Source: Microcystis aeruginosa NIES-843 (GTDB lineage Bacteria > Cyanobacteriota > Cyanobacteriia > Cyanobacteriales > Microcystaceae). Taken from it: DNA of 32,000 nt. This document shows positions 3,968 to 24,374 of this stretch, piece by piece. The position numbers and the translations under genes are program-made. Positions within the stretch are counted from its first letter, which is position 1. Each line of letters opens with the position of its first letter. Under the pieces are notes generated by a model. That model did not search any database, had not been told where the DNA came from, and worked only from the letters and a program-made list of their open reading frames with translations. Location: assembly GCF_000010625.1 (NCBI RefSeq), contig NC_010296.1, positions 1,890,001 through 1,922,000 on the forward strand, in the 5' to 3' direction.

Positions 3968-5290
3968 ATGACTACCAATATTGAGACTCTAAATTCGCTT
4001 TCATCTGCTCAAAAGCGCCATCTTTTGAAACAACTACTTTCAGAAAAATCTGACTATATGTCTCCGTCGAAAAATCCTAGCCAATGGGGTAATGAAAAAT
4101 TTCTCGATGACGCTGAGGCAGCTGGATTTCTTCTTGGTGATGGTATTCCGGTTATGGACGGGATGAGTGGCTCTCGCATTAAACGTGATGGTCGGGAAAT
4201 GATTAATTTATCAGGGATTAATTTTCTCGGACTACAACAAGAAGAGCAATTCGTTGAGATTTTCTGTAAAAATACCCGCCAATATGGTTTAGCTACGGGA
4301 GGATCTCGTCTTACTCAAGGAGTTTCCCGTCCCCATCTTTTACTGGAACAAAAGATGAACGAAATTTGGCAAAAAGATTATACTTTAACCTTTGGGACAG
4401 GAGCTTTAGCTAATATTGGTTTTATTAATGCTATGACCAGTTCTTTTGGCTTTGATGCAACTGTCACAATAGATAATCAGGATGTTGTTTTTGTTTTAGA
4501 TCGAGATTGTCACTGGAGTTTATGGAATCCGCTGGCTAACCGAAAGTTGGGTTCTCAAGTATTTGCCTTTAAGCATAATGATCCTTCTTCTCTTGAGCAA
4601 GTGTTAAAGAAGATTAAATCATCGAGGGTTATTGTCGTCTTTGAAACAGTATATTCTTCTGATGGCAGTGTAGCTCCTGTTGGTGAATTAATCGAAATTT
4701 GTGAGCGTTATGGAGCTTTATCTTACGTTGATGATGCTAACGGATTTATGATTTATGGCACTCCTAATCGACCTTTCTATCAGGAGTACAAAGCTTTACG
4801 CAGAGCTACTTTTATCATGGTTTCTTTCTCCAAAGCTGTCGGTATTGAAGGGGGAGCAATCAGTGGACCGAAAGAATTTGTCAAATCTTTTGAGATTCTC
4901 TCTGGTACTTCCTTGTTTACAGCAACTATGCAACCACCAACGGCTGCTACGAATCTGGAAATTATACAGCACTTGGAGAAAAATCCCAAAATTATGGATG
5001 ACTATCTAAAACGCTGTTTACAATTGCGAGAAACTCTAATTAATTTAGGTTTTCACCTCAATGATGTACCTTCTTACATTACCTCAATTATTATTGGTCA
5101 AGATGAAGTAGCTGAACAGGTACGACGAGACTTACTGGACATGGGGTATTGTATCCCTATATTCCGTTATCCTGCTGTTGAGCGTGGCAAGGCTTTAATT
5201 CGCTTGATGATCAACAATAAGCATACTGATGAGGATATTAATCTTTTTGTTGAAGCTCTCAAAAAAACCCGAGAGCACTATCAATTTTAA
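3968..5290 (+). CDS. PLP-dependent alpha-oxoamine synthase (AONS / serine palmitoyltransferase family)
   Basis: 440 aa. Family layout: GTGALAN...DRDCHWS...VDDANG...SFSKAVGIEGG, with the PLP lysine in SFSK at codon 289. AGGAG lies upstream of the ATG, 18 nt after the FAAL stop. Confidence 0.85.
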   Translation: MTTNIETLNSLSSAQKRHLLKQLLSEKSDYMSPSKNPSQWGNEKFLDDAEAAGFLLGDGIPVMDGMSGSRIKRDGREMINLSGINFLGLQQEEQFVEIFCKNTRQYGLATGGSRLTQGVSRPHLLLEQKMNEIWQKDYTLTFGTGALANIGFINAMTSSFGFDATVTIDNQDVVFVLDRDCHWSLWNPLANRKLGSQVFAFKHNDPSSLEQVLKKIKSSRVIVVFETVYSSDGSVAPVGELIEICERYGALSYVDDANGFMIYGTPNRPFYQEYKALRRATFIMVSFSKAVGIEGGAISGPKEFVKSFEILSGTSLFTATMQPPTAATNLEIIQHLEKNPKIMDDYLKRCLQLRETLINLGFHLNDVPSYITSIIIGQDEVAEQVRRDLLDMGYCIPIFRYPAVERGKALIRLMINNKHTDEDINLFVEALKKTREHYQF

Positions 5291-5384
5291 AGCCGACAAT
5301 ATCCAACTTCTGTCAATTAAGTTCCCATCACAAAACTAGAAAAAATGGGTAACTTACCCGATTCACAAAACCAAAAGGAGAAAA

Positions 5385-6506
5385 ATGATGATTGCCAATA
5401 CTTTACAAGCAGAAAAATGCTCAACTCTTAACGCCACTGTCAACTCTTATAATGAATGGGATCCTTTAGAAGAGGTAATCGTTGGAAGTTTAGATAATGC
5501 GGTGTTTCCCCCGAATCATCTTAGTGTTCACGCCACAATTCCTCAAAGTTTATCAAAAATATTGATGTGGTTTGGTAGCCGACGTTATCCAAAATTTTTA
5601 ATAGAAGAAGCGAGTAAGGATTTAGAACATTTCATCCATATTTTAGAATCTGAAGGAGTTACCGTCCGTCGTCCCGATGTTATGGATTTTAGCGTGACCT
5701 ACAAAACTCCCGATTGGAAATCAAAAGGGTTATGTACTGCCTGTCCGCGAGATGGTTTGTTAGTATTGGGAGACGAAATTATTGAAACCCCGATGGCATG
5801 GCGTTCTCGATATTTTGAACTCCACGCTTACCAAACATTATTAATTGAATATTTTCAAAAAGGTGCACGATGGACTGCCGCACCTAAACCCAAGTTAACC
5901 GATCGACTCTATGATCGCAACTATCAGATACCTCAAGAAGGGGAACCGATTCGCTACGTAATCACGGAATGCGAACCTGTCTTTGATGCGGCGGATTTTA
6001 TTCGCTGTGGTAAGGACATTTTTGTTACGAGAAGTAACGTGACAAATGAGATGGGAATTCAATGGCTAGAACGCCATGTTGGGGATAAATTTAATATTCA
6101 TAGAGTCGAAAGTAAATGCCGACAACCAATGCACATTGATTCTAGTTTCATGCCTCTGGCTCCTGGAAAGTTATTAGTGAACCCAGATTATATTGATGTG
6201 GCTAAAATCCCAGACATTTTTAAATCTTGGGATATTCTCATTGCTCCTAAACCCGATATTATCACAGGAGGTTTTTTCAATGCCAATGCTAGTATGTGTA
6301 GTTTATGGATTAGCATGAATGTATTAATGCTTGATGAGAAAAGGGTAATCATTGAAAAACATCAAGAAACGATGATTCGATTTCTCAAAGATCATGGATT
6401 TGAGCCAATTCCCTGCCCTTTCATGAATTACGCGCCTTTCGGTGGCTCTTTCCACTGCGCTACCTTGGATATCCGTCGTCGAGGGACGCTACAATCCTAT
6501 TTCTAG
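5385..6506 (+). CDS. Amidinotransferase (glycine amidinotransferase / CyrA / SxtG family)
   Basis: 373 aa. The C-terminus GGSFHCATLDIRRRGTLQSYF closely matches the catalytic-Cys end of AGAT-type enzymes. AAGGAG Shine-Dalgarno sequence upstream. Confidence 0.85.
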   Translation: MMIANTLQAEKCSTLNATVNSYNEWDPLEEVIVGSLDNAVFPPNHLSVHATIPQSLSKILMWFGSRRYPKFLIEEASKDLEHFIHILESEGVTVRRPDVMDFSVTYKTPDWKSKGLCTACPRDGLLVLGDEIIETPMAWRSRYFELHAYQTLLIEYFQKGARWTAAPKPKLTDRLYDRNYQIPQEGEPIRYVITECEPVFDAADFIRCGKDIFVTRSNVTNEMGIQWLERHVGDKFNIHRVESKCRQPMHIDSSFMPLAPGKLLVNPDYIDVAKIPDIFKSWDILIAPKPDIITGGFFNANASMCSLWISMNVLMLDEKRVIIEKHQETMIRFLKDHGFEPIPCPFMNYAPFGGSFHCATLDIRRRGTLQSYF

Positions 6507-6516
6507 TCTTAATCCA

Positions 6517-7185
6517 ATGCTTACCTTGACCATTTTGTGGCTGGCTTTTATTGATAGCATCAATCCCACCCCTATTGCCATCGCTATCCTGATATTTTTG
6601 TATCGGGGGACTCGGGGAGTTTGGGCTTACGTCTATGGTATTTTCTTGACTACTTTGGTTCAATCATTCGTTTTTTACTTCGGATTAAGTGAACTGCAAG
6701 AGATAATATCGAGACAACACCTATCTTCTGTTAACTGGGGCTGGCTGTTAATTCTTGTTGGAGTGGTGGTCAGTGCTTATGGATTATATCGCTGGTGTCA
6801 TAGAAAGGAAATTCCGAATCTAAGGAGGTGGGACTCTCTCCCCCCCTTAGATTACGCAAATCGACTCAAATTCTTAGCTTTTGGTAGCGCGACAACCCTC
6901 GCGGAGACACCGGGAGCGTTCCTAATGATTCTGGCTATTATTGAAATCAGAAAACTAGCAACTCCTTTCGTGTTTTTACCATTTTACTTAGGTCTTTATG
7001 CTACGATTTATACCTTGCCTATTGTTCTTTTAAATTTGGCTGGAATCTGGCATAAAAAGCCTTTAGAAACATGGCTATCTAGACATTTTAAGTTGCTTTA
7101 CCTCATTCTGAATATCACTATTAGTTTATCTTTAATCGCTTTTGGTGTATTTTTTCTTGCTATGGGAGTGAAACAATTAAGATGA
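6517..7185 (+). CDS. Small polytopic membrane protein, possible exporter (LysE/GAP-like; family uncertain)
   Basis: The track ORF 6442..7185 overlaps the upstream gene. I prefer the ATG at 6517 (MLTLTILWLAFIDSINP...). The protein is hydrophobic throughout, with about 6 predicted TM segments. Its stop overlaps the next start as ATGA at 7182-7185. Confidence 0.6.
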   Translation: MLTLTILWLAFIDSINPTPIAIAILIFLYRGTRGVWAYVYGIFLTTLVQSFVFYFGLSELQEIISRQHLSSVNWGWLLILVGVVVSAYGLYRWCHRKEIPNLRRWDSLPPLDYANRLKFLAFGSATTLAETPGAFLMILAIIEIRKLATPFVFLPFYLGLYATIYTLPIVLLNLAGIWHKKPLETWLSRHFKLLYLILNITISLSLIAFGVFFLAMGVKQLR

Positions 7186-16488: not shown

Positions 16489-19400
16489 ATGCCAGTCCTC
16501 ACCATCCGCGAAGAAGGAATTAACGATGGTGGCTTTACTGCTACTCTCAATTTTGATAGCGGTAACAGCTACCCAATTACGGTTACTGACCCCTTTACTA
16601 ACCAAGAAGAAAAACAACTAGAATGGTACTTTGAGGAATGGTTAGTATTTCCGACGCTAGACACGGATAAGGCGCAAAAAGCCGCCAACAGCGTCCAAAA
16701 CTATGGCGAAAACCTATTTAAACAGGTTTTCCAGAGTAATTTAAATGCTTATGGGGAATATCGAGACTTGCGAAAGCAGTTAAGTCAACTGCAAATTATC
16801 ATCGAAAGTCAGTCGCCAGAATTTCAAGCTTTACATTGGGAAGCGCTGAAAGATCCTGATTTACCGCGTCCTTTTTCTATAGATTGTATCATCTCCCGCC
16901 AGCGTCGAGGGGCTACAGTTGTCCCGGTGCAAATGGCCACTTATCCTACTATCAATCTTCTGGTGGTGATTGCGCGTCCTAATGAGGAATCTGATGTTAA
17001 CTATCGCACGATTTCCCGTCCTTTGGTAGAACTGGTAAATAGTAGTGAAATACCGGTAAAAATTGATATATTGCGTCCCGGAACTTATGAATCACTAACC
17101 AGACATCTGGATGAGAAGGGAGAAGGATACTATCATGTTATTCATTTCGATGTTCATGGCGGATTAATGGAATATGAACAGTACCAAAGACAGGTTCACG
17201 GGGATTCTTGGCGCTATCAAAGGGGATGGGGACTGGAGGATTTAGCAGAATATGAGGGAGTAAAAGCTTTTCTGTTTCTGGAAGGAGAAGAAAAAGGTCA
17301 AGCGACTCCGGTAGAAGCGACGGAATTAGCGAATTTACTCACTGGGAAAAATATCCCTATTTGTATTCTCAATGCTTGTCAGTCAGCAAAGCAAATTTCC
17401 CAGGAATCAGAAGACTATCGGGAAACCAGTTTAGGGAGTCGTTTGATGACTGCGGGAATGCAAGCTGTGGTGGCGATGGGATATTCGGTGACGGTTTCTG
17501 CAGCTAAGTTGATGATGAAACCAATTTATCAGCAATTATTGAACGGAAAAGACCTAACGGAAGCGATGCGAAAGGGACGGTTAGAGTTATTCAATAATAA
17601 GCAACGCCGCGCCTATTATAACACGAGAATAGATTTAGAAGATTGGTTATTACCGGTGATTTATTGTCGCGGTAAAATTAATCTCAATTTGCGTCCATTT
17701 ACTCCAGAAGAGGAGGAAAAATACTGGGAACATATCGGCAATCAATATGTCTTTCCTTTACCAGAATACGGCTTTGTGGGAAGGGATTTAGAAATTCTCA
17801 AGATGGAAAAGGCGCTGCTGAAACATAATATCCTTTTACTCAAAGGAATGGGAGGGACAGGAAAAACTACTTTACTCAATTATCTACGAGAATGGTGGCA
17901 GAAAACCAACTGGGCGACCCATATTTTCTATTTTGGTTATGATAGAAAAGCTTGGACGTTAGAACAGATTGTCCATGAAATTGGTCAGGGAATTTATAAT
18001 CGCTTTGAACAGGCGAGTTTCCAAGCGATGAACCTGAAAGCGCGGGTAAAGAAACTAGAGCAAAAACTCCGCAGTGAGGCGTATATTCTCATTTTAGATA
18101 ATCTGGAGTCGGTGACGGGACAACCGTTAGCAATTCAGAATACTTTACCGGAGAATGAAAGGGAAGCAATCGCCGAATTTCTCAAGAATTTGGTCGGGGG
18201 AAAAACGAAGGTGATTTTGGGTTCTCGCAGTGAGGAAACTTGGCTGCAACGCAGGACTTTTAAGGAGAATATCTATCAGTTACAAGGATTAGACCAAGAG
18301 TCGAGAACTGAATTAGCGGAGAGAATCTTAGAACGTCAGGCGAAGAGTCGGAAAAATGCGATTAAAAAGGATGATTATTTTAAACGTTTGATGAAGTTGT
18401 TGGCGGGATATCCGTTGGCGATGGAAGTGGTATTAGCGAATCTGAAGCGACAGTCACCGGAGGAGATTTGGCAAGGGTTACAGTTGGCGGAATTAGCTGA
18501 TGTGGGGGATGAGGATAAGACTAATAATATCATCAAGTGTGTGGAATATTCCCACAGTAATTTGTCGGAGGAGGCGCAGAAGTTGTTACTCTGTTTAGCA
18601 CCTTTTAGTGGGTTTATTCACAGGGGTGTTATTCCTATTTATAGCCAAAAACTACAGCAATTAGAACCTTTACAAGGCTATCAGTTTGATCAATTTGATG
18701 CAGCGATAGAAGAAGCGATTCATTGGGGTTTGCTTTCGCCGATGAGTGAAGAATTGCCGTATTTATTGACTATCCAGCCCATTTTTCCCTACTTCCTGAA
18801 GACGAAGTTAAAGGAATTAGCACCAGAGACACAAGCAGCAATTTGGGAGGGTTTTAAGAATCATTACCGAGACTTGGCAGGTTATTATGATACCTTACTA
18901 GATTCCAAAAATCCGCAGGAGAAGCAGTTAGGGATATTGTTCTGTCGCTGGGAGTATGAAAATCTGTTTAATGCGTTGCAAATCGCCCTCAATCAGCAAG
19001 AGAGCGTATTGACTATTATTAATTGCTTGCATAGTTATCTGGATTTAAACCAAGATACTCAGACTAATTTAAAGCTCCTAGAGTTCGTTCTCGAAACTTT
19101 TGAAAACTATCCCCCTGAAGCCAAACAAGGGCAGGTGGCAATAGAAATCATTGGTATAATTGACGAGGCAGGAAACAAATATTTACAAAGTAAAAATTAT
19201 CAGAAAGCGAAAGAGATTTACCAAAAAAGCCTTGAATTACTCAAGCCAATTAGTGAAAGTTACAGTCAATCTAAGCAATCTTTCCAAGCCATCACCCTGC
19301 ACAATTTGGGAATCGTAGCGCAAGAATTGAGGGAATGGGAACAGGCGCGACTCTACTTCCAGCAGGCTATTGAGATCTACATTGAATATGGGGATCGCTT

Positions 19401-20133
19401 CTCCCAAGCTACCACCCTGCACCAGTTGGGAACGGTAGCGCAACAATTGAGGGAATGGGAGCAAGCCCGAAGCTACTACCAGCAAGCTATTGGGATCTGC
19501 ATTGAATATGGGGATCGCTACTCCCAAGCCATCACCCTGCACAATTTGGGAGCCGTAGCGGCAGAATTGAGGGAATGGGAGCAAGCCCGAAGCCACTACC
19601 AGCAAGCTATTGGGATCTGCATTGAATATGGGGATCGCTACTCCCAAGCCATCACCCTGCACTGTTTGGGAATGGTAGCGGCAGAATTGAGGGAATGGGA
19701 GCAAGCCCAAAGCTACTACCAGCAAGCTATTGAGATCTACATTGAATATGGGGATCGCTACTCCCAAGCCAGCACCCTGCACCACTTGGGAAACCTAGCG
19801 CAAGCATTGAGGGAATGGGAGCAAGCCCGAAGCTACTACCAGCAAGCTATTGAGATCTACATTGAATATGGGGATCGCTACTCCCAAGCTGGAACCCTGC
19901 ACAATTTGGGAATGGTAGCCAAAGCAGTTGGGGAATTGAGCCAAGCCAAAAGTTATTACCTGCAAGCCTTACAAATTTGGGCAGAATTTAACGATAATTA
20001 CACCATACAAACCTATTCTTTGCCTCGTCTTGTTGCTCTTTATCAGCAAACGCAAGATGAGGAGATTCTTGTCGGTATTGCTTCTGTTTTCGGGGTTGGG
20101 GTTGAGGAGGTGCGGGGTTTGCTGGAGGGTTAG
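16489..20133 (+). CDS. CHAT (caspase-like protease) - STAND/NB-ARC-type P-loop NTPase - TPR repeat protein (bacterial NLR-like)
   Basis: 1214 aa. Caspase-fold dyad candidates are His223 (VIHFDVHGG) and Cys297 (ILNACQSA). Walker A GMGGTGKTT (Lys459), Walker B-like ILILDNLE. The C-terminus has six 40-aa TPR-like repeats. Confidence 0.85.
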   Translation: MPVLTIREEGINDGGFTATLNFDSGNSYPITVTDPFTNQEEKQLEWYFEEWLVFPTLDTDKAQKAANSVQNYGENLFKQVFQSNLNAYGEYRDLRKQLSQLQIIIESQSPEFQALHWEALKDPDLPRPFSIDCIISRQRRGATVVPVQMATYPTINLLVVIARPNEESDVNYRTISRPLVELVNSSEIPVKIDILRPGTYESLTRHLDEKGEGYYHVIHFDVHGGLMEYEQYQRQVHGDSWRYQRGWGLEDLAEYEGVKAFLFLEGEEKGQATPVEATELANLLTGKNIPICILNACQSAKQISQESEDYRETSLGSRLMTAGMQAVVAMGYSVTVSAAKLMMKPIYQQLLNGKDLTEAMRKGRLELFNNKQRRAYYNTRIDLEDWLLPVIYCRGKINLNLRPFTPEEEEKYWEHIGNQYVFPLPEYGFVGRDLEILKMEKALLKHNILLLKGMGGTGKTTLLNYLREWWQKTNWATHIFYFGYDRKAWTLEQIVHEIGQGIYNRFEQASFQAMNLKARVKKLEQKLRSEAYILILDNLESVTGQPLAIQNTLPENEREAIAEFLKNLVGGKTKVILGSRSEETWLQRRTFKENIYQLQGLDQESRTELAERILERQAKSRKNAIKKDDYFKRLMKLLAGYPLAMEVVLANLKRQSPEEIWQGLQLAELADVGDEDKTNNIIKCVEYSHSNLSEEAQKLLLCLAPFSGFIHRGVIPIYSQKLQQLEPLQGYQFDQFDAAIEEAIHWGLLSPMSEELPYLLTIQPIFPYFLKTKLKELAPETQAAIWEGFKNHYRDLAGYYDTLLDSKNPQEKQLGILFCRWEYENLFNALQIALNQQESVLTIINCLHSYLDLNQDTQTNLKLLEFVLETFENYPPEAKQGQVAIEIIGIIDEAGNKYLQSKNYQKAKEIYQKSLELLKPISESYSQSKQSFQAITLHNLGIVAQELREWEQARLYFQQAIEIYIEYGDRFSQATTLHQLGTVAQQLREWEQARSYYQQAIGICIEYGDRYSQAITLHNLGAVAAELREWEQARSHYQQAIGICIEYGDRYSQAITLHCLGMVAAELREWEQAQSYYQQAIEIYIEYGDRYSQASTLHHLGNLAQALREWEQARSYYQQAIEIYIEYGDRYSQAGTLHNLGMVAKAVGELSQAKSYYLQALQIWAEFNDNYTIQTYSLPRLVALYQQTQDEEILVGIASVFGVGVEEVRGLLEG
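19285..20004 (+). repeat. Intragenic 120-bp tandem repeats (5 near-identical units plus 1 diverged) encoding the TPR array
   Basis: The period of 120 nt was verified from CAAGCC at 19285 and CAAGCT at 19405. The unit is QAxTLHxLGxVAxxLREWEQARSYYQQAIEIYIEYGDRYS. The antisense track ORF 19237..19785 is a by-product. Confidence 0.9.
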
Positions 20134-20280: not shown

Positions 20281-20287
20281 GCGCTCC

Positions 20288-20392
20288 CTTCGCTAAATTC
20301 TCTCCCCTTTCCTTGTAGGAGAAAGGCCAGGGGAGAGGTCAATAATTAAGAACCCAATGCGATCACACTATCTGGTAAAGATCAAGTATAAT
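20288..20392 (+). repeat. 105-bp non-coding module R, copy 1
   Basis: CTTCGCTAAATTCTCTCCCCTTTCCTTGTAGGA...CAGGGGAGAGGTCAATAATTAAGAACCCAATGCGATC...GATCAAGTATAAT. It contains the hairpin CTCTCCCC/GGGGAGAG and ends in a TATAAT box. A near-identical copy lies at 22662..22766. Confidence 0.85.
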
Positions 20393-20405
20393 AATAAATA
20401 TAAAG

Positions 20406-20434
20406 ACCAAATTATTCATCTACCGTTAACTTAA
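20406..20434 (+). pseudogene. Orphan 3' tail of a DUF5615-type toxin gene
   Basis: ACCAAATTATTCATCTACCGTTAACTTAA (..QIIHLPLT*) matches the last codons of the intact gene at 23489..23517 (ACCAAATTATTCATTTACCGTTAACCTGA). It sits right after module R copy 1. Confidence 0.65.
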
Positions 20435-20444
20435 TGAAAGCCAA

Positions 20445-21080: not shown

Positions 21081-21177
21081 ACCATGAAAACAGGTGATAT
21101 TGTTTTAATGATTAAATTATCATTGAACCCTAACGCACCATCTTCATAAAATTGGTTTGTTACGCTACAAACTACTA

Positions 21178-21645
21178 CTAAATATAGATATAACCCAAGC
21201 CAAAGACACGAAGCAAATCTCGGCATCCTTCTTCAAAATTATCATTAAAATTAATAATTTGGAAGCTAGGTAAGACCCAAGAAAGTTTTGTATATTCACA
21301 AGGTTGATAGAGAATTGGCAAAATTTTATCTTCAAAACGCTGATCCTGTAAAGTAAAAATTAGTTCTCGCTTTACCCACATAGAATCGACCGCATCAGGA
21401 GAGAGAACGATAATAAACCAATCACATCGCCTCAAAGCTTTCCCAATTTCATCATGCCATTGCTGTGCGCCTAAAATATTAGTTTCACTATACCAAACGG
21501 GAACTCCATGACGGCGTAATTCATTGGCCAAATGAGAGACAAACTCTCGATTTTTGCTAGAATGGGAAAGAAAAGCTTCTTGGGGAATCATCTCATACCT
21601 ATAGTTAAAATTAGACAAAGCATAGCTTGGGATGAGACAAGCCAA
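21178..21645 (-). CDS. TIR domain protein (TIR-B)
   Basis: 155 aa. TIR start AFLSHSS, then ...VPVWYSE...WFIIVLSPDAVDSMWVKRELIF with a conserved Glu candidate. An alternative start at the internal Met (ATG 21589-21591) is likely. The upstream TIR gene ends 2 nt before this ORF. Confidence 0.75.
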   Translation of the reverse strand: MACLIPSYALSNFNYRYEMIPQEAFLSHSSKNREFVSHLANELRRHGVPVWYSETNILGAQQWHDEIGKALRRCDWFIIVLSPDAVDSMWVKRELIFTLQDQRFEDKILPILYQPCEYTKLSWVLPSFQIINFNDNFEEGCRDLLRVFGLGYIYI

Positions 21646-21647
21646 AT

Positions 21648-22091
21648 CTAAAAGTGGTGTATCTCATGAGTCAGTCCGTCGGAGCTTGTCGTATTTTTAA
21701 GTGCCTGTGTAATTTCTTTCAATTCTTGATTGTCTTGTTCAAGATTAGGGACGAAAATCATTGGAAATTTTTTGAGAATCCAAGGAATATGTTCTAGGTT
21801 TGAATTATCTGAGGAAGAGACAATAACAGGAATGATACGACCTTGATACTTTTCTTCTCCAATTGCATAACTAATATCAGAAACAACATTAAAAGGCTTC
21901 AGTGATTCTGGTGTTAATAAGACTATCATTGCTTCAGATTCTTGTAAGGCTTTACCTATGTTATTAGCCCAGTTTTCCCCGGGTAACATTTCAGCAGCAT
22001 CCCAAACTTGAAAGCCATCTTCTTTGAGAGAATCAGCAACTCTCTTAGCTAACTTAGCCTCAGTAAAGGCATGACTAATAAAAACTTTCAT
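21648..22091 (-). CDS. TIR domain protein (TIR-A)
   Basis: 147 aa. MKVFISHAF...GFQVWDAAEMLPGENW...AMIVLLTPESL follows the TIR_2-like pattern. No obvious W-x-x-x-E motif is present (the sequence is NVVSDISYAIGE instead). Confidence 0.7.
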   Translation of the reverse strand: MKVFISHAFTEAKLAKRVADSLKEDGFQVWDAAEMLPGENWANNIGKALQESEAMIVLLTPESLKPFNVVSDISYAIGEEKYQGRIIPVIVSSSDNSNLEHIPWILKKFPMIFVPNLEQDNQELKEITQALKNTTSSDGLTHEIHHF

Positions 22092-22196
22092 ATTCTTTCT
22101 AGCTTCCTCGATATTTAAATTAATTCAACTGATTTATTCATAATCTGCTGACAATTTACTAAGAGTATAGCGTTTTTAGTCGCTAGAGAAACTCAT

Positions 22197-22505
22197 TTAC
22201 TCCTCGACTTCATCAGGAATAGATTCAGCTAACTTAAGCATAGCGCCTAAATCGACTGTTTCTTCAGCGAAATTTCCTGTGCGGGCTTCTGCGAGTCCCC
22301 GTTTGAGCGACTCGCGGACCCTAGGATTCTGAAAAGCCCATAGTTCTCCCCCCAGAATCGCCACCATGGGAACCAAAAGAAGCTCCCCGCTTGCATTCAT
22401 CAGTATTCGATAGTGACGGTTGCTACATTCAGTCCCAAGGCTAATCCGTCCGCAAGCATCAGCCTGAATATCTTCTTTAATGAGCGAAAAATTCTGATAC
22501 TCCAT
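22197..22505 (-). CDS. AbrB/MazE/SpoVT-like small protein (antitoxin-like)
   Basis: The swapped-hairpin-like core DACGRISLGTECSNRHYRILMNASGELLLVPM and the tail ELWAFQNPRVRESLKRGLAEARTG resemble cyanobacterial AbrB-type antitoxins. I prefer the second ATG (22503-22505) because GAGGAGGAG lies 5-8 nt upstream. The track ORF extends to 22526. Confidence 0.5.
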   Translation of the reverse strand: MEYQNFSLIKEDIQADACGRISLGTECSNRHYRILMNASGELLLVPMVAILGGELWAFQNPRVRESLKRGLAEARTGNFAEETVDLGAMLKLAESIPDEVEE

Positions 22506-22661
22506 CACGTCTCCTCCTCTCTTCATATACTTATTCTAGATAAGTTACCCAATTTGGGCAATAGGGTTATGTCCATTTAGCTCCTCACTATCTAAAGAAA
22601 ACAGGTTAAACTTGTTCGGGCGAGAGCCTTGACAACAAACCCAGTTTGTAGTCGAAGCTCT

Positions 22662-22766
22662 CTTCGCTAAATTCTCTCCCCTTTCCTTGTAGGATAGGGT
22701 TCAGGGGAGAGGTCAATAATTAAGAACCCAATGCGATCGCACTATTCGGCAACGATCAAGTATAAT
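22662..22766 (+). repeat. 105-bp non-coding module R, copy 2 (upstream of the DUF433 gene)
   Basis: Aligns base-for-base with 20288..20392 except for the inner part of the hairpin and a few substitutions. It ends in TATAAT, 60 nt before the ATG at 22827. Confidence 0.85.
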
Positions 22767-22826: not shown

Positions 22827-23177
22827 ATGCAACTCGAAGACTATTTTAATTTTCTTGCCCCTAACGATATCCGACTAAAAGAAACCCGCATCGGTATTGA
22901 AACCATTTTATACGATTTTATTTACCAAGCGAGAACTCCCGAAGAAATTGCCAATACTTATCCGTCTTTAACCCTAGAACAGGTATATGCGACGATTCTT
23001 TATTATCTTCATGAAAAAGAAAAAGTGAGTCAATACATCACCGACTGGCTAGAATGGGGGCGAAAAATGCGAGAAGAACAGCAAAAAAATCCTCCGCCTT
23101 CGGTTGAACGACTGAGAAAATTGAAAGCTGAAATAACAGCCAAGCAGAAAGCTAATGACACTGAAATATTTAATTGA
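22827..23177 (+). CDS. DUF433-like protein (putative antitoxin)
   Basis: 116 aa. TRIGIETILYDF...TPEEIANTYPSLTLEQVYATILYY is the DUF433 pattern. It overlaps the next gene by 23 nt. Confidence 0.65.
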   Translation: MQLEDYFNFLAPNDIRLKETRIGIETILYDFIYQARTPEEIANTYPSLTLEQVYATILYYLHEKEKVSQYITDWLEWGRKMREEQQKNPPPSVERLRKLKAEITAKQKANDTEIFN

Positions 23178-23517
23178 TGAAAATGTTAATTCGGTGTATC
23201 CTCAACAATTGCGTCGCCGAGAACCAGAAATCATTGTTCGAGTAGTTGGTGAACCAGATACACCAAAATTAGGTACATTAGATCCAGAAATTTTGATTTG
23301 GTGTGAGGTAATGGGTTTTATTTTAGTGACAAATAATCGTGCCTCTATGCCCGTTCATTTAATAGCTCACTTCAGGCAAAATCGTCATGTTCCTGGAATT
23401 TTTATTCTCAATCAAGATTTAAGTGTTGGTGATAATTTGTTAGAATTAATTGTAATTGCTAAAGGCTCTTTTGACAATGAATATGAAAACCAAATTATTC
23501 ATTTACCGTTAACCTGA
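23155..23517 (+). CDS. DUF5615-like (PIN/Mut7-C-like) protein (putative toxin)
   Basis: 120 aa. YLIDENV...ILVTNN is the pattern typical of DUF5615 partners of DUF433. Confidence 0.6.
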   Translation: MTLKYLIDENVNSVYPQQLRRREPEIIVRVVGEPDTPKLGTLDPEILIWCEVMGFILVTNNRASMPVHLIAHFRQNRHVPGIFILNQDLSVGDNLLELIVIAKGSFDNEYENQIIHLPLT

Positions 23518-23583: not shown

Positions 23584-23661
23584 GATGAGGATATTTTCGT
23601 TGCTGTGGCTGATATTTTGAGGATTGGGATTGAGGAGGTGCGGGGTTTGCTGGAGGGTTAG
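23584..23661 (+). pseudogene. Orphan 3' tail of a second CHAT-STAND-TPR-type gene
   Basis: Encodes ..DEDIFVAVADILRIGIEEVRGLLEG*, compared with the intact gene end DEEILVGIASVFGVGVEEVRGLLEG*. The similarity continues into the 3' flank: 23662-23734 matches 20134-20189, with a ~20-nt indel. There is no upstream ORF body; stops lie at 23515 and 23524. Confidence 0.75.
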
Positions 23662-23753
23662 GATGGGTTTTGGGCGTAGGGATTGTTTGGGCGCAGGGTG
23701 CGTGTTTGCGGCTATCAATTCAGTTAACGTAAGTCTTAATTAAGGTGGTAAAT

Positions 23754-24374
23754 ATGGTTCAATTTTTACAAGCAAAAGAAGTCACTCTTAGAAATTTAAT
23801 TAATCATTTTCAACTACAGTTTATAGAAGATAAGCATTTTTTTGGGGAATGGCAGCAAGACCTAGAAGCAATCTCTGAACAAGAAAAAGAATTGTTAGAT
23901 AAAATCAAAACAGGTTATTTAAACTTATTAAATTATCCTCCCTTTTTAGAAACTTCGGTGAGGATGACGGTTTTAGATCCATTGTTATTTATTGGTAACT
24001 TTTATCTATTTCCCTTTCAGATTAAAGCGGAAGAGTCCGTTGAAATTATTACAGAAGAGCAAGATTTAATAATTAAAGGAAGGTTAGATACTTTAATTCT
24101 AAAAGAACAATTATGGGTAATGATTATTGAATCAAAACGGGTTATTTATTCCGTTGAAGTAGGTTTACCGCAATTATTAGCTTATTTAATGGTCAATCCT
24201 CATCCCAACCGTCCTAATTATGGAATGTTGACCAATGGTTCCGAGTTTTTATTTGTTAAATTATTATGGGACGGTAAACCTTTATACGGAACCTCTCGTT
24301 TATTTGCCATGAGAAATCCGGGGGATTTATATGAGGTTCTCAAAATCCTTAAACATCTCTGTCAACTAATTTGA
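23754..24374 (+). CDS. PD-(D/E)XK nuclease-fold protein (HsdR-N-terminal-like)
   Basis: GRLDTLILKEQLWVMIIESKR gives a D...E-x-K motif. The ATG at 23754 is preceded by AAGGTGG. The track ORF starts at an upstream GTG (23745). Confidence 0.55.
   Translation: MVQFLQAKEVTLRNLINHFQLQFIEDKHFFGEWQQDLEAISEQEKELLDKIKTGYLNLLNYPPFLETSVRMTVLDPLLFIGNFYLFPFQIKAEESVEIITEEQDLIIKGRLDTLILKEQLWVMIIESKRVIYSVEVGLPQLLAYLMVNPHPNRPNYGMLTNGSEFLFVKLLWDGKPLYGTSRLFAMRNPGDLYEVLKILKHLCQLI

Follow-up and report, generated by a model that had tools for sequence, protein, structure and literature searches.

TIR-A and TIR-B of Microcystis aeruginosa: a conserved pair of bare TIR genes with a predicted catalytic and a predicted regulatory partner

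Bacterial TIR proteins serve as models for the switching of TIR enzymes in plant and animal immunity, and in the known bacterial systems the TIR domain is coupled either to a separate effector, as in Thoeris, or to a sensor domain within the same protein. This article concerns two adjacent genes, here called TIR-A and TIR-B, each encoding a bare TIR domain, which lie on the minus strand of a 32,000-nt stretch of the M. aeruginosa NIES-843 genome (NC_010296.1, positions 1,890,001 to 1,922,000), hereafter the window, in whose numbering coordinates are given unless another locus is named. The closest described proteins are the NADases AbTir, BtTir and PdTIR, whose structures (PDB 7UWG, 8G83, 7UXR and 3H16) are the best structure matches of TIR-B (E = 4e-9 to 4e-8). 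They belong with TIR-B to the Pfam TIR_2 family, and the WxxxE motif of their C-helix aligns with that of TIR-B residue for residue. AbTir-type NADases are, however, products of single genes and carry N-terminal coiled-coil or dimerisation regions, whereas TIR-B, a predicted NADase, is a bare domain of 137 amino acids (aa) that is nearly always encoded behind the paralogous TIR-A.

Thoeris systems (types I-XI) likewise contain small TIR-only proteins, sometimes as tandem TIR genes (several in type III), and Thoeris TIRs make NAD+-derived products (10.64898/2025.12.03.692087). Every Thoeris type is nevertheless defined by a linked effector gene and by enrichment in defence islands, and neither was found for the TIR pair; across lineages, no Thoeris effector (SIR2-SLOG, Macro, SLOG, caspase-like, DUF2270 or others) was linked to it. 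A systematic TIR survey published in 2025 considered clusters enriched near defence genes, sought non-TIR effectors, and arrived at 29 putative Thoeris types, none of them TIR-TIR only (10.64898/2025.12.03.692087). No description of a TIR-TIR-only operon was found in the literature searched, which is not proof of novelty; the all-TIR two-gene architecture is apparently undescribed for TIR NADase systems.

Two further comparisons are informative. In plants, the adjacent genes RPS4 and RRS1 encode a catalytic TIR, that of RPS4, and a non-catalytic TIR, that of RRS1, which restrains it. The resemblance to TIR-A and TIR-B is a functional analogy only and consists of adjacent genes, one TIR with the catalytic Glu and one without, and a proposed regulating hetero-complex. 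RPS4 and RRS1 are large NLR proteins with sensor domains and are of unrelated origin, while the interaction of TIR-A with TIR-B is a proposal and the catalytic position of most TIR-A proteins is still occupied by an acidic residue. Type II toxin-antitoxin systems with NAD+-targeting toxins (RES-Xre, MbcT-MbcA) share with the TIR pair a compact, autonomous two-gene cassette found in scattered chromosomal contexts, an upstream partner that is less conserved, a downstream partner that is more often lost, and an NAD+-consuming toxin, as predicted for TIR-B. They differ in that the putative antitoxin TIR-A is a paralogue of the predicted toxin, itself a TIR protein, and not DNA-binding.

The conserved TIR-A/TIR-B gene pair

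The two TIR genes and the spacer that separates them are arranged as follows.

21178 to 21591, minus strand: TIR-B, 137 aa, bare TIR domain, predicted catalytic NADase subunit
21592 to 21647, minus strand: spacer of 56 nt between TIR-A and TIR-B
21648 to 22091, minus strand: TIR-A, 147 aa, bare TIR domain, predicted to be regulatory and weakly or non-catalytic

A preliminary description of this DNA had recognised three minus-strand genes, an AbrB/MazE-like gene (here geneX) followed by TIR-A and TIR-B, and these open reading frames lie where it placed them, with a geneX of 102 aa from ATG 22505, a gap of 105 nt between geneX and TIR-A, and a TIR-A of 147 aa. Its TIR-B, of 155 aa and beginning 2 nt after TIR-A, had to be redrawn. 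That protein corresponds to the longest, mechanically defined open reading frame (21178-21645), which opens at TTG 21645, probably not the real start; ATG 21591 (MIPQE...) is the start of TIR-B in all homologues and in independent gene calls, and it yields a protein of 137 aa behind a spacer of 56 nt. Both proteins are bare TIR domains, as had been stated, and match Pfam TIR_2 (PF13676; gathering cut-off 28 bits) with 89.4 bits (E = 3.3e-25) for TIR-B and 73.3 bits (E = 3.2e-20) for TIR-A. TIR-B is 99% identical to its counterpart in M. ichthyoblabe FBCC-A1114. A candidate hairpin in the spacer (21644-21623) is weak and no better than chance.

TIR-A and TIR-B constitute a stand-alone module, the two genes being inherited and transferred together. 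A survey of one genome per species (185,579 species genomes), with loci confirmed by tblastn, yielded 272 loci; the genome-locus counts rest on 80 of these that were fetched, 79 of them testable, the other one (L027) being cut by a contig end. TIR-A lies immediately upstream of TIR-B and on the same strand in 78 of the 79, and the loci span more than 10 phyla (Cyanobacteria, Gammaproteobacteria, Acidobacteriota, Planctomycetota, Poribacteria, Latescibacterota, Spirochaetia, Gemmatimonadota, Chloroflexota and others). The sole solo TIR-B found, in a Longimicrobium metagenome-assembled genome (L066, 6001-6405), has an intact WxxxE motif and no TIR-A in the upstream frames; this may be a true exception, or else an artefact of the assembly. 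The reverse survey gave a similar picture, with TIR-B downstream of TIR-A in 72 of the 78 metagenome loci that had room for it, out of 80 recovered via TIR-A. Homologue searches returned 104 relatives of TIR-A, in Cyanobacteria, Tectomicrobia and Acidobacteriota, and at least 1,629 of TIR-B, at 66-75% identity and across phyla. The same order, TIR-A and then TIR-B, recurs in differing surroundings in Gloeothece, a Tectomicrobia-type contig, a 2.5-Mb contig, Gemmatimonadota and Nostoc, and the median gap between the genes in the family is 23 nt (56 nt in the window). Long open reading frames in L052, L066 and L073 that resembled natural fusions proved to be overlapping-frame artefacts or solo TIR-B, and no true TIR-A-TIR-B fusion was found among the examined loci.

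The two proteins have also diverged together. Their distance matrices are correlated (r = 0.79, a value reached in none of 500 permutations), mean pairwise identity across phyla is 49% for TIR-A and 66% for TIR-B, and the median ratio of nonsynonymous to synonymous substitution rates (dN/dS), from the 118 pairs whose dS is not saturated, comes to 0.30 in TIR-A and 0.17 in TIR-B, indicating purifying selection on both. Synonymous sites are saturated in 96% of all sequence pairs, which implies that the similarity across phyla is old and constrained rather than the product of recent transfer.

No conserved third gene accompanies the pair: all-against-all clustering of 2,407 flanking open reading frames recovered lineage-level synteny only, in Nostoc (11 loci) and Poribacteria (5 loci). 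A Pfam scan of the 92 nearest neighbours in 49 non-redundant loci found no family more than three times and no recurrent effector, and PADLOC matches among these neighbours were sporadic, each family occurring in at most one of them. Most neighbours are housekeeping genes, such as those for undecaprenyl-PP synthase, enoyl-CoA hydratase, lumazine synthase, ThiC and GyrA, and this qualitative census of the 49 loci gave no sign of defence-island enrichment. Neither a set of 50,697 phage records nor IMG/VR contained a match to the TIR-A/TIR-B family, and in a plasmid collection the matches were to other TIRs, the best of them, at coverage above 80%, being 37.5% identical. Within Microcystis, the presence of the pair is polymorphic. 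One Gemmatimonadota locus (L039) has a same-strand HTH_3 (Xre-type) gene upstream of the pair (94 aa, 5158-5442) and an HNH nuclease gene downstream on the same strand (100 aa, 6452-6754), adjoined by a PcfJ-like gene; these flanks may be an addition to the cassette peculiar to this lineage, or else a mobile setting, and HTH_3 occurs in just 2 of the 92 nearest neighbours overall.

Where the pair is broken, it is mostly TIR-B that is missing. Intact TIR-A stands without a functional TIR-B in 6 of the 78 loci found through TIR-A, and the reverse applies to 1 of 79. In two of the six, TIR-B persists beside an intact TIR-A as a pseudogene deprived of its catalytic core, either cut off after residue 46 (L119, 3433-3567) or missing residues ~12-90 through an internal deletion (L128, 3463-3600); the other four (L118, L121, L129 and L169) have TIR-A without any TIR-B, and L121 and L129 are near-identical. 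The more frequent loss of TIR-B is suggestive but not significant. This asymmetry, the placing of TIR-A upstream and its stronger divergence are all features to be expected of a toxin-antitoxin-like pair.

Motif asymmetry and a proposed mechanism

TIR-A and TIR-B are paralogues (hhalign probability 99.7 and 22% identity between the two families), and they differ sharply in the WxxxE motif. Motif counts were taken from hidden Markov model alignments of all recovered sequences, 136 unique for TIR-B and 145 unique for TIR-A. In TIR-B the Trp, the Glu and the full motif are each present in 136 of 136 sequences, whereas in TIR-A the Trp occurs in 35 and the full motif in 21 of the 145; the acidic column of TIR-A holds Glu in 98 sequences, Asp in 36 and a non-acidic residue in 11. 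The window copies follow suit. TIR-B has W72-x-x-x-E76 (WVKRE), as the preliminary description had noticed, and TIR-A, which had appeared there to lack the motif, does have it replaced, by N68-x-x-x-D72 in the same columns, but is not simply devoid of it, with Asp standing where most relatives have Glu. What TIR-A does retain is the BB-loop (P-G-x-N-W), which is nearly fixed (P37 in 143, G38 in 145, N40 in 145 and W41 in 137 of the 145 sequences), as well as A76, found in all 145. TIR-A thus appears, from this pattern of residues, to conserve an interaction surface rather than catalytic chemistry. The suggestion that one TIR is catalytic and the other regulatory or degenerate therefore holds at the level of the family (WxxxE in 136/136 TIR-B versus 21/145 TIR-A), and profile comparison of both TIRs, part of what had been advised, found the catalytic Glu of TIR-B invariant and the BB-loop of TIR-A nearly so.

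The solved structures closest to TIR-B are those of AbTir, BtTir, PdTIR and Cat1. Its WxxxE aligns with the catalytic WTNYEL of AbTir, and E76 with the Glu of that motif, documented as E208 (PMC10641520). In AbTir, this Glu is needed for NADase activity and the Trp is needed for formation of 2'cADPR, a requirement linked to the production of cyclic ADP-ribose (cADPR) isomers; the Trp is less conserved among non-catalytic TIRs (PMC11374754, PMC10641520). The best PADLOC models for the TIR pair are PDC-S66, Aga TIR-APAZ and SAVED-TIR rather than ThsB, those best fitting TIR-B being effector-type TIRs (e.g., TIR-SAVED and TIR-APAZ), and the Pfam model ThsB_TIR scores 14.7 and 16.0 bits for the two TIRs, below its cut-off of 21.2 bits. 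TIR-B is probably an NAD+ glycohydrolase or cyclase of the AbTir type, as judged from these alignments.

We give about even credence to the reading in which the TIR pair is an autonomous module of a catalytic and a regulatory subunit, a restrained NADase. TIR-B, with its invariant WxxxE, would be the AbTir-type enzyme, and TIR-A would be a co-evolving paralogue in which the catalytic motif is dispensable and the BB-loop is not free to vary. TIR-A could bind TIR-B through the BB-loop and so block the TIR-TIR assembly required for NADase activity, until a trigger, perhaps phage infection or loss of TIR-A, freed TIR-B to consume NAD+ and arrest the cell. A more far-reaching version, that the pair represents an undescribed, ancient, phylum-spanning immune or toxin-antitoxin-like two-TIR module in which a pseudo-enzyme TIR gates a catalytic TIR through the TIR-TIR interface, is offered tentatively and is somewhat less than probable.

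Several points weigh against a restrained NADase. NADase activity is predicted from motifs only; the solo TIR-B of L066, with its intact WxxxE, fits poorly with a constitutively toxic TIR-B; an acidic residue is kept in 92% of TIR-A sequences, so that TIR-A may itself be catalytic; and the loss asymmetry falls short of significance (p = 0.06 by Fisher's test, p = 0.11 once the two near-identical loci are merged). The position of the pair outside defence islands and mobile elements, and its conservation far beyond that of most defence proteins, leaves room for a role other than defence.

The main rival to a restraining TIR-A is an obligatory activating one. TIR-A would then be a required subunit of a hetero-enzyme, its BB-loop completing the active site of TIR-B, or a sensor that nucleates the assembly of TIR-B, and neither protein would be active alone. 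There is precedent for such a contribution, as a neighbouring protomer completes the active site in AbTir, SARM1 and TIR-SAVED assemblies. An invariant BB-loop beside a labile catalytic motif in TIR-A is what such an enzyme would predict, as are strict pairing and co-evolution, and the solo TIR-B of L066 would be tolerated if TIR-B were inactive by itself. Yet TIR-B is lost beside an intact TIR-A oftener than the reverse, and it is not obvious why an orphaned activator should persist; the order of the genes and their relative divergence are also antitoxin-like, although none of these points is decisive. L066 thus favours activation and the loss asymmetry favours inhibition, and we regard the obligate hetero-enzyme as possible but unlikely.

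A physiological, non-defence role is more doubtful still. Here the pair would act in NAD+- or nucleotide-derived signalling or as a metabolic enzyme, for example a synthase of a cADPR-type messenger with unlinked host targets. Its mainly housekeeping neighbours, its stable synteny in Nostoc (11 loci) and Poribacteria (5 loci), its absence from phages, plasmids and viral contigs, and the unusual conservation of TIR-B (66% mean identity across phyla, dN/dS of 0.17) would all suit such a role. The distribution is, however, very patchy (272 loci in 185,579 species genomes), with presence/absence polymorphism within Microcystis, and the pair has neither a receptor nor a target gene linked to it. 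The bacterial TIR enzymes characterised so far are, as far as is known, all conflict-related, which also counts against a non-defence role.

geneX, geneY and the variable Microcystis region

The remaining features concern the surroundings of the TIR genes in the window and the family of a second gene, geneY.

21151 to 22184, minus strand: TIR cassette, comprising leader, TIR-A, spacer, TIR-B and a 27-nt tail, with limits from strain comparison
22176 to 22196, minus strand: geneY relic, ATG AGT TTC TCT AGC GAC TAA = M-S-F-S-S-D-stop
22197 to 22505, minus strand: geneX, 102 aa, antitoxin-like gene left as an orphan, its N-terminal domain possibly AbrB/SpoVT-like
22533 to 22561, minus strand: promoter-like site, TTGCCC-17-TAGAAT, upstream of geneX, from a consensus scan
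22657 to 22766, strand not applicable: 110-nt direct repeat whose 90% identical copy lies at 20283-20392, the two enclosing DUF29, the TIR pair and geneX
L093, 4310 to 4660; L095, 3318 to 3665; L177, 1944 to 2234: geneY family, ~96-116 aa, always downstream of geneX-family genes

The longest open reading frame of geneX (22197-22526) would encode 109 aa, and the 102-aa form starts at ATG 22505 behind a GGAGGAG box. A profile search of 1.84 billion representative proteins recovered a geneX family of 447 matches (E <= 1e-3) of ~90-130 aa, for which there is no Pfam model; among the 20 close relatives, every named one is from Microcystis. The AbrB/MazE-like label given to this gene earlier gained no significant support from profile searches of Pfam, NCBIfam, PADLOC and PDB, and what speaks for it is a set of weak hints. 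The top two Foldseek matches of an AlphaFold2 model built from 85 distant relatives (pLDDT 86) are to the AbrB-type N-terminal domain of SpoVT (probability 0.85-0.92, E ~0.5), upon which the model superimposes with a root-mean-square deviation of 2.1 Å over 44 columns; a model from 12 Microcystis sequences was unusable (pLDDT 47). One of the 85 relatives matches MazE_antitoxin (E = 0.003), and hhalign against AbrB, SpoVT, Abh and MazE, with reference sequences entered by hand, gave P = 0.004 and a probability of 9%, the D-x-x-G-R-I and G-x-I-L-L-x-P motifs falling in the expected register. An AbrB-like fold for geneX is plausible but unproven. With AbrB/SpoVT/MazE antitoxins it shares small size, an upstream location in which it abuts or overlaps a small partner gene, and the D-x-x-G-R-I ... 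G-x-I-L-L-x-P pattern, and its two leading Foldseek matches are to the SpoVT domain; it differs in having no significant sequence, profile or fold match and in its partner, which is geneY and not a TIR gene.

That partner is seen next to geneX-family genes in three independent contexts. In M. aeruginosa NIES-2522, which has no TIR genes at this site, a geneX that is 88% identical to the window copy is followed directly by geneY (116 aa); in L095/L096, a geneY 59% identical to that of NIES-2522 overlaps a geneX relative by 4 nt; and in L177, a homologue with 43% identity (E = 1e-28) stands behind a distant geneX relative. The C-terminus of geneY is conserved (TPxAYRIFWxYGP....TI..ITPHP) and recalls toxins of the RelE/ParE type. 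Assignment to that class was not sustained, the best lead being a weak Gp49 match (E = 0.087) and no Pfam, NCBIfam or PDB match being significant, and the toxin label thus derives from gene organisation and the resemblance of the C-terminal motif. Taken together, geneX and geneY look like an uncatalogued toxin-antitoxin-like pair.

Comparison of strains locates the TIR cassette within this pair. The window and NIES-2522 are 94.8% identical over 582 nt, and the homology ends at 22185, 12 nt beyond the geneX stop codon. Those 12 nt (ATGAGTTTCTCT in one and TTGAATTTCTCT in the other) are the first four codons of geneY, whose frame in the window stops after six codons. At the other side, the block common to the window, BLCCF158 and TAIHU98 ends at 21151. 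The homology break and the geneY relic show that the cassette (21151-22184) sits in place of geneY; in the Microcystis lineage of the window, the cassette has replaced that gene. A second strain bears on the need for geneX. In M. aeruginosa TAIHU98, geneX is interrupted after codon 56 by a 1,420-bp ISL3-family element (L094, 2649-4068) that has terminal inverted repeats (GGCTCTTCG...) and has duplicated 8 bp of its target (ACTATGGG), and both TIR genes are intact, TIR-A being 100% identical to the window copy and TIR-B differing by one residue. geneX is thus not needed to tolerate the TIR genes, with the caveat that the ISL3 insertion might also silence them.

These observations bear directly on the three-gene module proposed in the preliminary description, in which the AbrB-like geneX would serve as antitoxin or repressor of a TIR NADase pair. 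The genes do lie on one strand, the geneX-TIR-TIR block stays together in several Microcystis strains, and the only promoter-like site is the one upstream of geneX: the consensus scan found none on the minus strand in the gap between geneX and TIR-A, and no other promoter or terminator signals or cassette-end repeats in the window rose above chance. That site may also drive the TIR genes, geneX has its weak AbrB/SpoVT-like hints, and a local co-option of geneX as a transcriptional regulator is conceivable. Co-conservation, whose absence the preliminary description had itself named as refuting the module, fails, however, as close relatives of geneX are confined to Microcystis and geneX is absent from every TIR-pair locus outside it while the pair spans more than 10 phyla; the partner of geneX is geneY, whose 12-nt relic remains at the junction; the TAIHU98 insertion splits geneX and leaves the TIR genes intact; and the GC content of geneX (0.479) departs from that of the TIR genes (0.36-0.37). 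We consider the three-gene unit very unlikely, and as a conserved module it is largely refuted. geneX is instead the antitoxin-like half of a separate geneX-geneY pair and not part of the TIR module, and a promoter reading through the TIR genes would be, at most, its present tie to them. Base composition had been cited earlier in another way, the whole segment being called more AT-rich than its flanks. This is so for the TIR cassette, whose GC of 0.359, against 0.431 over the whole window, falls at the 4th percentile among stretches of equal size, but the nearby accessory genes are just as AT-rich and geneX is not.

The window contains no SIR2, SLOG or Macro gene according to Pfam and PADLOC scans, in agreement with the preliminary description, which had named as nearest candidate effector a CHAT-STAND protein ~1 kb from the TIR pair. 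This protein (1,214 aa; CHAT, NB-ARC and TPR) has a complete STAND architecture. Its gene lies next to the pair in Microcystis only and is not among the neighbours elsewhere, which are mainly housekeeping genes; the genes between it and the pair or geneX vary by strain, being DUF29 in the window, DUF2283 in BLCCF158 and TAIHU98, and geneY in NIES-2522. Its candidacy as the effector is not supported by this comparison. A Thoeris-like arrangement, in which a nucleotide signal from the TIR pair activates an effector elsewhere, such as this CHAT-NB-ARC-TPR protein, has in its favour the protease gene ~1 kb away, the precedent of type IV Thoeris, which pairs a TIR with a caspase-like effector (10.1101/2024.10.24.620036), and the Trp of TIR-B tied to cADPR-isomer synthesis (PMC11374754), yet it is hardly probable at all, given that the 49 non-redundant loci show no effector family linked to the pair, that no conserved TIR-protease pair of the type IV kind was found, the CHAT gene adjoining in Microcystis only with strain-variable genes in between, that the CHAT protein, which has a TPR sensor of its own, is complete in its STAND architecture, and that ThsB_TIR scores fall under the Pfam threshold.

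The accessory region around the cassette shows further signs of rearrangement. The CHAT-NB-ARC-TPR gene (16489-20133, plus strand) contains TPR units whose period is 120 nt and which self-align at multiples of that length, especially at 19284-19967, and its orthologue in NIES-2522 is longer (1,413 versus 1,214 aa), which suggests variation in repeat number between strains. Three sets of direct repeats (20056-20189/23584-23734, 20283-20392/22657-22766 and 20393-20462/23476-23545), 70-150 nt in length and 81-96% identical, are scattered through the region; they mark breakpoints at which DUF29, geneX with the TIR pair, DUF433-DUF5615 and HSDR_N shuffle between Microcystis strains, and the 110-nt repeat at 22657-22766 is among these strain-to-strain breakpoints. 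The 3' end of the CHAT-TPR gene is duplicated in the repeat copy at 23584-23680, and a relic of the DUF5615 gene, from its 3' end, makes up the copy at 20393-20435, just upstream of DUF29. Divergent to geneX, genes for a DUF433 protein (116 aa, 22827-23177, plus strand) and a DUF5615 protein (120 aa, 23155-23517, plus strand) overlap by 23 nt, resemble a toxin-antitoxin-type pair and travel as a block between strains. Beyond them, 23745-24374 (plus strand) encodes a 209-aa protein with weak nuclease-like matches, to HSDR_N (Pfam, E = 1e-5) and to PD_DExK (PADLOC, E = 3e-4).

Meaning for Microcystis and for TIR biology

In Microcystis, recombination can set an orphan antitoxin-like gene beside an unrelated cassette and so create a misleading 'operon', which calls for caution in annotation. 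For the TIR family, a pair that is conserved in more than 10 phyla and yet lies outside defence islands, plasmids and phages implies that context-based pipelines may miss compact NAD+-targeting modules. Two bare TIRs, one with an invariant catalytic motif and the other with an invariant BB-loop only, would form the simplest natural system in which one TIR controls another. If this is true, the pair would be a bacterial counterpart of the paired TIRs of plants, missed by discovery based on defence islands because of its housekeeping surroundings.

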